Shown here: positions 15,052 through 55,105 of the stretch, piece by piece | Layout of the letters: every line of letters starts with the position of its first letter | Numbering within the stretch: the first letter of the stretch is position 1 | From: Octopus vulgaris | Lineage: Eukaryota | Assembly: GCA_951406725.2 (NCBI GenBank) | Contig: OX597817.1 | Location: 173,166,001 to 173,230,000 of the forward strand | DNA length: 64,000 bases | Direction of reading: 5' to 3' | Position numbers and translations under genes: made by a program | Notes under the pieces: generated by a model | What the model saw: only the letters and a program-made list of their open reading frames with translations | Told to the model about the DNA's origin: nothing | Databases searched by the model: none

Positions 15052-15104
<53 letters not shown>

Positions 15105-15107
<3 letters not shown>

Positions 15108-15300
15108 TAATCCAAACGGGAAAACAGAAAAAACAACAACACGTGGAACAATTACAGTATTATTATTATTAGGCGCTCAGGAAAATGGAAGAAGGAGGGT
15201 ATGACGTTTCGAGCGGAGCTCTTCGTCGGAAACATAGGAGAAAGAAAGATCCCGAAACGGGAGGACAGAGGAAAAAAAATTGTAGGTAGTCTTCACGAGG
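15105..15300 (-). mobile_element. Solo PLE 3' terminus with hammerhead-like motif (15199-15233)
   Basis: Resembles the reverse complement of about 54900-55105, the end of the GIY-YIG element. Confidence 0.7.
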
Positions 15301-45429: not shown

Positions 45430-45930
45430 GCATGCATGCATACATACATACATACATACACACACACACGCACGCATGCATACATACATACATACATACG
45501 TACATACATACATACATACATACATACATACATACATACATACATACATACATACACACACACACGCACGCATGCATACATACATACATACATACATACG
45601 TACATACATACACACATACATACATACACACACACATACATACATACATACACACACACGCATGCATACATACATACATACATACATACATACATACATA
45701 CATACATACATACATACATACATACACACACACATACATACACACACACATACATACATACATACATACATACATACATACATACATACATACATACATA
45801 CATACATACATACATACATACATACATACATACATACATACATACATACATACATACATACATACATACATACATACATACATACATACATACATACATA
45901 CATACATACATACATACATACATACATACA

Positions 45931-49094: not shown

Positions 49095-49408
49095 CTAGCC
49101 CTTTATTTTGTACCAGGTACCAATTTCTTTCCGTGAATGTCTCACCATTTCTTCCCAATGATATTTAGATTTTTTATCAAATTTTGCTCCAACATAGATA
49201 CGGCCAATTAAATAACCAGATTTCTCATCTCTCTTGTTATGGTGCAGCACGGAGATGATGAAATAAATGTTTTCAAGCTGATTGTTTGGTACATCAAAAA
49301 TGTAGGTCTCGTTAAAAATCGGGTTGCCATTTGTTGCATTTCTTAAGGAAGTTTTCGTTTTCTTCATTGCTCTCCCATCACTCATCAAAGCAACACGGAC
49401 ATAGGCAT
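49095..49408 (-). CDS. Terminal exon of a synaptotagmin-like gene (C-terminal part of the C2B domain)
   Basis: Acceptor CTCTCCTTTCAG|AT; DAYVRVALM..KKTKT..NPIFNETYIFDVP..LIGRIYVG..HWEEMV..EIGTWY..stop; upstream exons not identified in this window. Confidence 0.88.
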
Positions 49409-50071
49409 CTGAAAGGAGAGTGATACAAAATGCTTGATTAGACAATGAGCATAAAATGTCAACAACACAGGAGAGACAAGTTTGAACAAATATCGAATTA
49501 TTTTAACACTTAAAGGTTGTACATATATACGAGAGGGTACTGGAAAGTTTGTGGCTTTAAGGGTGTTGTGAAAGGCCTGGTTGGAGGCCCAACCTTCCGA
49601 GTTCTTTTACAGGGCTTAGAAAAACTGAAGGACCACTGCAATAAGTGTGTGAATCTAAGAAGGGAATAAGTTAGATAAAACCATTATTAACTGATCCTCC
49701 TGTATTTTCTTTTACCCAAAGCCGGGACCTTTTCTGCCCCGTCTCCTAGATAAAAATTATACAAACATATGTACATACATAAATAAATGTGTGTGTGTTT
49801 GTGTGTGTGTGTGTGTAACATATGGTATAATTATAAACTGGGTGAATTTTAGCCATTTCTCTGCAGACTGAAAAAATGATGAACAACCTTAATCGATTTT
49901 TGAATTTATTTGGGTTCTCATCAGAGGCGTCTAGATCATTCTGACAGCCTCCAGAGAAACAAGCAGCCAAACTGTTTATATACTCAACAAATGCAGCAGT
50001 TACTCTATGAAGGAATCCCTAGAATTTGCATTGCAAGATTCCTGATGTGAAACCATGTGCTGAAACAGGTG

Positions 50072-51949: not shown

Positions 51950-52267
51950 TATCACTCTTTTACGTGCACCTCGTCTGGCCTTATTTACTGCATTAAATGC
52001 AACCTATGCGGGATGCTGTATGTAGGTCAGACGGGACGCCGGTTGTCCGACCGTTTCACTGAACACTTGAGGGACGTTCGCCTACACTCTTTTTCTCCCG
52101 TCGCACGCCACTTCCGCTCGGCCGGCCATTCCCGAGATGACATCTCAGTGTTTGGTCTCGCCCCCCACAATGGTCGCCCACTTTCCAGGCTCCACTTGGA
52201 GCAACGCTACATCTTCACCCTACAAACTACCACCCCACACGGACTTAACACAGCCCCCTCCTCTTGA
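51950..52267 (+). pseudogene. PLE GIY-YIG endonuclease domain (truncated ORF)
   Basis: FTCTSSGLIYCIKCNLCGMLYVGQTGRRLSDRFTEH..VARHF..H..EQRYIFTLQT..PHGLN: LIY-YVG motif with CCHH residues. Confidence 0.9.
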
Positions 52268-55101
52268 GATCGGTTTTTTTTTTTTTTTTTTTCGGACACA
52301 CCACCCACACACACCCACCCACCTACCTCCCACACGCCTGTTCACACACACACATACGTAGACCCATCTACGTACATACATTCACACATTTAATCACACA
52401 CACTTACAGACACACATGCACATACACACACACATACATACATACACACACGCATACATACTTACACACACACACACACACACACAGACATACATACACA
52501 CATACACACACACATACATACGCACATACATACACACACACTCACACACACACACCGCACGTACATACTTCACACACACACACATGCACACATACATGTA
52601 GGCACATACATACATACATACCCACACATGCACACCCGTACACTGAATGCACACACACATACACCTTTTTGCATCCAGGCAGCCCCACCCTCTTTTCTGC
52701 TTTCCGGTTTTGGCTGATGGATCCTCGGTTCTCGCGTAGCGGTGCGTTCGAGGGCCTTTGCGCTCGCGCGCCTTGGCGCGCGCTGGGGCTCGGTCGGCCC
52801 CTTTGGGCTTGCGTTGTACTGCTTGTGCGTTGTGTGCGTGAGCGCGCTTCGTGTGTGTGGGCTTGCTTCGGATGTGCGCATGCGTATGTTTGCATACATA
52901 CCCACACACTCGCATGCATCCCTACCCACATACATACACGCACACCTACTCACACACACACATACACACACACACATACCCGCACACACACACACATACA
53001 TACATACATACACACACATACCCACTTCAGACATACACACACACAGACATACACCCATACACTCACACTCACACGCATACACACACACACATACACACGC
53101 ACACGTACACACACACACACACACACACCACACATACATACATCTACACACTCACGCCTACACACATACATACACACATACATAAACACACACACATACA
53201 CACACACATACACACACACACGCACACACACATACATACATACACCCATATACATACACACACACATACCTACATACTCCTATACGCACATACATACACA
53301 CAGACATACACACATACACACTCACACAAACATACACACACACATACTTACACACACACTCACCTGCACGCGCACACACATGCATGACAAACACCCATAC
53401 ACTCACACTCACATACGCACACACCAACATAAACACGCACACGCACACACACACCTACACTCCCACACACATACACACGCACCTACATACACACACGCAC
53501 GCATACACACATACATTACACACGTACACACACACCTACATACACATGCATACACACACACACACAAACATGCACGGACACACCCAGACATACATACATA
53601 CACCTATATACACACGCCCACACACCTACATACACACACATATACACACGCCCACACAGCTACATACACACACATACATACACACATACACGGACACACC
53701 CATACATACTTACATACATACACCTATACACACACGCCTACACACCTACACACACACATGCATACACACACACATGTACGCACATCACACACATATACGC
53801 ACATACATATATACCCACACACATGCACACACACACACATACGCACATGCATGCACGCATGCACACGCGCACACCTACACGCATACACACACACACACGC
53901 ACGTACACATACATACATACACACACGCATACATACACCCATACACATACATGCATCCTACACACACATACATACACACTCACACATACATACACACACA
54001 CGCACTCACTCACACACCTGTATGTTCGCGCACACACATGCACATACACACACTTCCCCACACCCACACGTACATACATACACACTCATACACATACACA
54101 CACACACACACACACGGACATACATCTATGCACACACATATATACACACATACTCACATACATTCATCGGACACACTGCCACCCAGACATACACACAGAC
54201 ACACTCACACATCCACACACACACATACGTACGCGCACACTCGCAGGCGCGCGCACACACGCGCTTGCGCCGGTTCGCGCACGCATGCGCGCCGCATGCA
54301 CCTCGCCCTTGGACCCGACGAGACCTCCCGCCCGTTCCTGGGATGTCGCTTGTCGTTGGGTTTTCCCACGCCCGTCTCCGCGGGACCACTCTTCCATCTT
54401 CCCCTCCGCTGGAGTCCTTTTCCTTAACCCCCCCTTTTTTTCGTTACACACACGCGCACACATATACACACATTGCTTAAACATATACATTACTCTTACA
54501 CACATTCAATCTACTCGCCATTAATACTACCACGACACTGGACACACACACACTCTACTACTCAACACACGCTGGCACGCTACATACGCCCCCACCCCTT
54601 CCCCTCCCTCCCTTCCTCCTTCCTCCCTTTTCTTACTACTGACCTTTGTCTGCTATGCTGCTGCTATGCTGACCACCGTCTCGCCCTACCTCACACGCCT
54701 ACACACAGACGCACACACTAACACATACATATATTTTTTGTTTTTTTATCTCGCCTCACACACACACATACACACACGCACACGCACACACTCACACATA
54801 CACACACATCTGTTGCGTTACCAACCTTGTCTCCACTCTTTTGCCTTTAAAAACCCACTTTGCTCTTGTTATCGTAAACATCCGCCTTTCACCATGTGTA
54901 ACCCCTAAACACCAGTCGTTTTTTTCTCTATCTCCGTTGCCCGCTCTGGGATCTTTCTTTCCTCTCTCTTCCTTCTTTATGTTTCCGACGAAGAGCTCCG
55001 CTCGAAACGTCATACCTCCCTGCTTCCATTTCCTGAGCGCCTATTAATAATAATACTGTAATTGTTCCATTGTTGTTGTTTTTTTGTTTCCCGTTTGGAT
55101 T

Positions 55102-55105
<4 letters not shown>
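51950..55105 (+). mobile_element. 5'-truncated Penelope-like element: GIY-YIG endonuclease C-terminus, long CA-rich 3' region, hammerhead-like motif (54981-55015) and tail
   Basis: GIY-YIG peptide, then low-complexity UTR, then CCGACGA-A-GAGC TCC GCTC-GAAACGTC; ends at (TA)n. Confidence 0.75.

Follow-up and report, generated by a model that had tools for sequence, protein, structure and literature searches.

An A-depleted island in an Octopus vulgaris Penelope-like element: an inherited inverted duplicate with probable ancestral A-to-G RNA editing

The Penelope-like copy and its A-depleted island

The window analysed here is a 64-kb stretch of Octopus vulgaris contig OX597817.1 (GCA_951406725.2, positions 173,166,001 to 173,230,000, forward strand), and all positions are counted from its first letter. 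It contains a young copy of a Penelope-like element (PLE), flanked on either side by TG/TA microsatellites, whose features are listed in Table 1. The GIY-YIG part of this copy is 99-100% identical to that of its siblings, and among the matches listed, all 150 scored genomic matches to the endonuclease end have 99-100% protein identity. Full sibling units are ~6.2 kb long, stand in tandem and hold one 884-aa frame with a reverse transcriptase (RT) and, at its C terminus, a GIY-YIG endonuclease; the Pfam matches of this frame to RVT_1 and GIY-YIG are weak, both lying below the curated cut-offs. The frame has 254 homologues at E<=1e-30, the majority of those listed being annotated as RVT_1. Ahead of the endonuclease, at residue 752, lies a CX4CxxC linker, and PMC8557442 describes a CX2-5CxxC linker in this place as a mark of Neptune and Nematis. 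Judged by its frame layout and linker, the element is probably an EN+ PLE of the Neptune type.

In full units, the beginning of the RT frame is overlapped by another open frame, 363 aa long (L033, 1434-2522; also L034 and L035), which had no Pfam match. The hammerhead-like motif near the element 3' end was matched by eye to the hammerhead core; the Rfam hammerhead gave no match at E<=5. Hammerhead motifs have been described in PLE repeats (PMC4209133). Elsewhere in the window, a short 3'-end piece of a related PLE (83-90% identical) is found at 15100-15278 on the minus strand, and a second element match, at 45671-45913, was rejected as ACAT satellite only. The minus strand also has a 135-aa open frame at 49095-49502, which reads like a C2-domain (synaptotagmin-like) exon.

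Table 1. Features of the Penelope-like copy, in window coordinates
Feature	Position	Strand	Basis
Penelope-like (Neptune-type) retrotransposon copy, young, 5'-truncated	51953..55105	+	matches 3' half of full ~6.2-kb tandem units
GIY-YIG endonuclease, C-terminal coding end and stop codon	51953..52267	+	Pfam PF01541, E=3.7e-4, below curated cut-off
CA/ACAT-rich 3' UTR upstream of island	52295..52664	+	composition, tandem repeats
Arm 1 core: inverted duplicate of the 138-nt segment, with ancestral A>G and later T>C and insertions	52665..52812	+	alignment chain
Arm 1 extension, TG-rich; likely an inverted copy of the CA/ACAT repeats before the ancestral segment	52813..52890	+	
CA/ACAT-rich spacer between the arms, fold-back loop	52891..54224	+	composition, tandem repeats
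Arm 2 extension: CA repeats turned CG/TG-rich; likely partner of the TG stretch	54225..54294	+	G counts
Arm 2 core: original segment in direct orientation, A>G in early copies, since strongly diverged	~54295..54430	+	alignment chain
Minimal hammerhead-like motif near element 3' end	54985..55010	+	read by eye

The original prediction had pointed to a stretch with only 6 A in 180 nt between A/C-rich, G-poor flanks, and base counts bore this out. The island (52691-52870) consists of A6 C48 G66 T60, whereas the CA/ACAT-rich upstream flank (52295-52664) has A149 C147 G21 T53 and the downstream flank (52886-54224) A548 C540 G70 T181, which corresponds to ~40% A and ~5% G in both. No other 180-nt stretch on the plus strand of the 64-kb window has 14 or fewer A. 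Drawn at flank composition, 180 nt would have 6 A or fewer with a probability of 3e-32; had the flank simply been inverted (14% A), the probability would be 1.6e-6. Contigs from two independent DNA runs span the stretch in all 28 bins without any G>A at 3% or more; since the two runs agree, the Gs are not an assembly error. Contigs of one presumed RNA run covered 9 of the 28 bins. Three bases, at 52687, 52732 and 52743, are private to the window copy when it is compared with the family and the two DNA runs.

Other readings of the island composition fared less well. That four of its six surviving As have a 5' G is correct as a count, but composition alone would produce it at p=0.14, and of these As only those at 52717 and 52721 are ancestral, the others having been gained later. 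Reversion of G to A was supposed to restore text like that of the flanks; under Markov scoring, held-out flank scored -1.13 bits/nt and the best reversion -2.08, and in its 5' half the reverted island did not outdo shuffles. When the two arms were compared with known RNA families and ribozymes, the only matches were microsatellite-like miRNAs, below gathering scores. The inverted-repeat search of the window did not report the arm pair, and the 25 longest of its 781 pairs were microsatellites.

Young copies, older subfamilies and the ancestral segment

Within the young family, the island is inherited. All 40 matches scored, out of 430 candidates, are 97-100% identical to the window copy, and the island Gs are common to 29 aligned siblings. 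An island motif degenerate for G/A had 265 genomic matches (among the first 100 listed, 95 were all-G and 5 had one A), and forcing A into the motif retrieved 3 single variants. The island is present in 98 of 100 copies selected by their endonuclease, these being the first 100 of 150 listed matches; the remaining two break off before it. Private changes in the 100 young copies comprised A>G at 87 of 1252 sites vs T>C at 106 of 995, a comparison that lends no support to editing as a continuing ratchet among young copies, and a pure A>G cluster was found in none of these copies. The claim that the window copy's own transcript had been edited is therefore contradicted, as its Gs are common to siblings and young copies have no A>G excess. 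One outcome named as refuting the idea had two halves, namely Gs shared by siblings and the lack of an A-rich version; the former was observed in the young family, whereas the latter was not, since older subfamilies do have an A-rich version.

Variants shared among L086-L185 lean to pyrimidine transitions (T>C 10, C>T 15, A>G 0, G>A 3). The lean is element-wide and possibly reflects an RT bias or a drift toward a C-rich sense strand.

The older subfamilies form a ladder, their GIY consensuses being 3.9-11.9% distant from the young family, and the A content of the island stays at 4.7-5.8% across seven subfamily consensuses. The 82 later changes in the island of the master line include 27 T>C, 5 C>T and 6 A>G. 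An interim reading, according to which the island was a structured UTR without editing, was dropped because its subfamilies all postdate the event and more distant copies without the island were found. These came from a protein search with the old endonuclease, from which 20 loci were taken, and they have one A-richer segment in sense orientation; one further subfamily search yielded none new.

The unduplicated, A-richer segment is present in at least 40 older copies (40 of 119 candidates scored, 92-100% identity). For comparison, 30 of the 119 candidates, picked by likeness to one copy, served as the unduplicated set; a full inverted copy occurs in none of these 30 loci, and short reverse matches (23-54 nt) occur in three. 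The island duplicates the ancestral 138-nt segment in inverted, reverse-complement form, and its partner in the window lies ~1.4 kb downstream, along a chain of alignments that for arm 2 runs through single copies. In early duplicated copies the inverted arm is located 321-1388 nt upstream of the original. The island had been taken not to be a simple inversion, on the ground that its C content was kept; it is an inversion, and many of its Cs stem from later T>C. Nor was the unedited text flank-like, as had been assumed, for it is the reverse complement of the downstream segment. The arm 1 extension is almost pure (TG)n in older subfamilies and is predicted by folding to form a hairpin with the CA flanks.

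The tree of GIY sequences, midpoint-drawn and without an outgroup, is likewise a ladder, with copies of the unduplicated type lying to one side of L217/L218. L219, L216 and L225 were labelled island-less, yet they are placed among island-bearing copies; L225 carries a variant island that the label had overlooked, and L219 is without both arms. A second sister lineage (L223, L224, L228 and L231) has been recently active, as its short terminal branches indicate, and its 3' UTR has gained a TTTA run; no recognisable copy of the segment was found in this 3' UTR, hence it provides no control. L230, of the unduplicated type, has an internal direct duplication of ~800 nt of 3' UTR. L227 is an early-type copy that is 5'-truncated just before arm 2, has a partly edited arm 2 and lies inverted beside another copy; beyond it lies a putative fragment of a PIF1-type helicase, judged by eye.

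Chained alignments were used to trace the 72 Gs in 52691-52885: 25 derive from A, 26 from G, 7 from T or C, and 14 are insertions, the tracing being approximate in the repeat half of the island. The idea that all island Gs are edits thus fails, as only 25 of 72 go back to A. Likewise, 15 of the 51 island Cs derive from T.

A>G changes in the two arms and their likely origin

The arms of early copies were compared with the ancestor by majority states; of 23 early loci, 21 passed the alignment-score cut for arm 1 and 15 for arm 2. The scoring matrix was symmetric for A/G and C/T, and alignments scoring below ~150, which were misplaced on CA repeats, were left out. A>G was found at 35 of 70 A sites and made up 35 of the 57 changes; arm 1 contributed 22 of its 40 A sites and arm 2 13 of its 30. 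Other changes were T>C at 6 of 75 sites (A>G vs T>C, p=1e-8), C>T at 0 of 49 and G>A at 2 of 54; a further 5 changes in arm 1 are A>T. Both arms were read on the ORF strand, and in each the A>G lies on the sense strand. The clustered, strand-specific A>G that was predicted to be written into the PLE is therefore borne out for the ancestor, and not for the window copy. In six control regions of the element outside the arms, A>G between the same groups amounted to 9 of 440, and close relatives with an unduplicated segment have no A>G bias.

A reciprocal test that needs no root gave the same picture. The arms differ from each other at 42 sites, at 39 of which the older segment matches one arm; at 29 of these 39, A>G affects a single arm and its counterpart is unchanged, which leaves 30 G-U pairs and 2 A-C mismatches. 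The gain of G extends with the duplex into the repeat extension and ends past it: upstream of the arm 2 core, the G content per 60 nt is 0.7 in 30 unduplicated copies vs 10.7 in 10 early duplicated ones, and beyond the arm 2 extension, further upstream, it is only 1.1. Because A>G is found on the same strand in both arms, it suggests deamination of a folded single strand; a DNA mutation passed from arm to arm by copying would give A>G in one of them and T>C in its partner.

The neighbours of the changed sites were also inspected. A sites with a 5' G had changed in 2 of 6 cases vs 36 of 54 for the others, which is the expected direction in few sites (one-sided p=0.12), and by majority state the figures were 2 of 7 vs 33 of 55 (p=0.22). 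Where the A was followed by a 3' G, all 7 sites had changed. PMC5625713 gives avoidance of a 5' G as the best-known ADAR motif and a 3' A as the preference of invertebrates; this 3'-A preference was not seen in the arms (8 of 13). Compensatory T>C opposite the new Gs was not significant (p=0.10-1.0).

The search with the junction motif of the duplication gave 15 matches, among which was L306, a copy without the later transversions. In L306, A>G accounts for 30 of the 39 clean differences (30 of 69 A), and none of the 47 A in the next 110 nt has changed. L306 and the main line have 22 changed sites in common, while 11 are absent from L306 and 5 are its own; several sites are mixed A/G among main-line early copies. 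Its partly different set of edits, together with the mixed sites, points, as the likely source, to two or more RNAs that were edited differently, or to editing in successive rounds. An unedited duplicated copy was not found among the 15 matches.

Folding predicts 118-122 inter-arm pairs in early copies vs 47 in the window copy, and this weakened pairing fits the absence of a present-day editing signal. The window island itself folds better than shuffles (z -2.3), as do the islands of all 14 copies tested (z -1.0 to -6.3). Selection may explain why the island was retained later.

We consider it probable that an inverted-duplicate arm in the 3' UTR of an ancestral PLE received sense-strand A>G changes, likely by ADAR and reverse transcription, and was inherited via a founder lineage. 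The inversion would have arisen by template switching at palindromic (AT/ACAT) ends, after which the two arms would have paired as fold-back RNA. ADAR would have deaminated about half of the adenosines in both arms on the sense strand, and the edited RNA would have been reverse-transcribed into germline DNA. The edited lineage would be the likely founder of the subfamilies that lead to the window copy, and its arms would later have drifted apart, the predicted inter-arm pairs falling from ~120 to 47. The unduplicated, A-richer segment, its inversion, the sense-strand A>G excess restricted to the arms and the inheritance of the changes are seen in the sequences themselves; ADAR as the enzyme, RNA pairing of the arms and template switching we infer from sequence patterns. 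The editing mechanism first put forward most likely holds for an ancestor, not for the window copy.

Several other causes were weighed against this one. The same inversion could have acquired its sense-strand A>G through another adenosine deaminase, or through an RT that misread A in a duplex template, and the lack of a significant neighbour preference, as well as edits being read from DNA alone, would agree with such a cause. We regard it as improbable, given that the changes keep to the sense strand and to the paired arms, that first-strand cDNA, if edited, would show T>C instead, and that element-wide changes of the master line lean to T>C and C>T rather than A>G. Somewhat less credible still is an origin by point mutations filtered through selection on RNA structure, in which G-U-compatible changes were kept or a perfect dsRNA was escaped. 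Better folding than shuffles in 14 of 14 copies and the constancy of the A content in seven consensuses would suit it. C>T would also keep pairing, yet it is absent (0 of 49); escape from dsRNA would accept any mismatch; filtered mutation is too slow for a change of 50% in an interval that saw 2% in the controls; and the new Gs lack significant compensatory T>C opposite them. Structure selection as the origin of the island is thereby largely refuted.

The polarity might instead be reversed, so that the single A-richer segment was derived from a duplicated, G-rich state by loss of arm 1. The tree is unrooted and the unduplicated and early duplicated copies are similar in age, both of which would permit this; it would require the Gs of arm 2 to revert exactly to the bases complementary to arm 1 and would leave the 19 changes of arm 1 itself unexplained, and we hold it to be very improbable. 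Hyper-editing of the window copy's own transcript from flank-like text accounts for the local A depletion and has next to no probability in view of the 95 all-G and 5 single-A sequences among the first 100 listed of 265 motif matches, the island in 98 of 100 copies, and a reversion that yields no flank text.

Implications and comparison with known systems

Under the favoured explanation, that of an edited and inherited inverted arm, it is conceivable, though we think it rather doubtful, that host ADAR, far from restricting the element, rescued it: through repeated editing, a perfect hairpin of the element's own making would have become a G-U-rich, imperfect one, the duplicated element would have stayed active, and seven subfamilies would have retained the edited arm as a structured module of their 3' UTR. 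If this were true, RNA editing would have supplied the mutations behind a part that an active mobile element inherited and kept.

Irrespective of such a rescue, A-to-I-type edits made in RNA can likely pass into heritable DNA, and here the unedited ancestor and the intermediates are preserved in one genome. The edits were likely passed on by an active retrotransposon lineage, to which they were not lethal, and they imply that ADAR can reach the RNA of retrotransposons in the germline or the early embryo. Such scars are invisible if copies are compared solely with the consensus of their own family. The ancestral, early-edited and modern 3' UTRs offer a ready test system, in which editing, RNA stability and mobility can be compared. 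In the open-access literature searched, no account of ADAR-edited copies of a Penelope element having become fixed in a genome was found.

The structure of the element agrees with that of Neptune-type EN+ PLEs, for which an RT with a C-terminal GIY-YIG, a CX4CxxC linker and tandem units, as well as microsatellite targets, are described, and their hammerhead motif has a candidate counterpart here (PMC8557442, PMC11167929, PMC4209133). Unlike the inverted pLTR at the insertion sites of such PLEs, the inverted repeat described here lies inside the 3' UTR and is inherited. Dense A>G in long, near-perfect duplexes is known from ADAR hyper-editing of self-folding repeats, such as Xenopus Harbinger (PMC5625713); the metazoan hyper-editing described in that source was seen in RNA reads only, whereas here it would be fixed in DNA. 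APOBEC-edited LTR retrotransposons similarly have deaminase scars fixed in genomic copies, recognised as strand-biased clusters against the ancestral state (PMC4866542, PMC2873906). Those scars are G>A, made on cDNA of LTR elements, whereas the present ones are A>G, are restricted to paired arms and occur in a non-LTR element of an invertebrate type; these two sources report APOBEC DNA editing of LTR retrotransposons as absent from invertebrates. A-to-G hyper-editing was also reported for avian RAV-1 and avian leukosis virus (Felder 1994; Hajjar and Linial 1995; cited in PMC8586724), so that ADAR-type A>G clusters are recorded in a reverse-transcribing element there as here. In contrast to those viral sequences as they are presented in PMC8586724, the scar in O. 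vulgaris lies in a germline Penelope-like element whose unedited ancestor is present in the same genome, and it has been inherited by a long series of active subfamilies.
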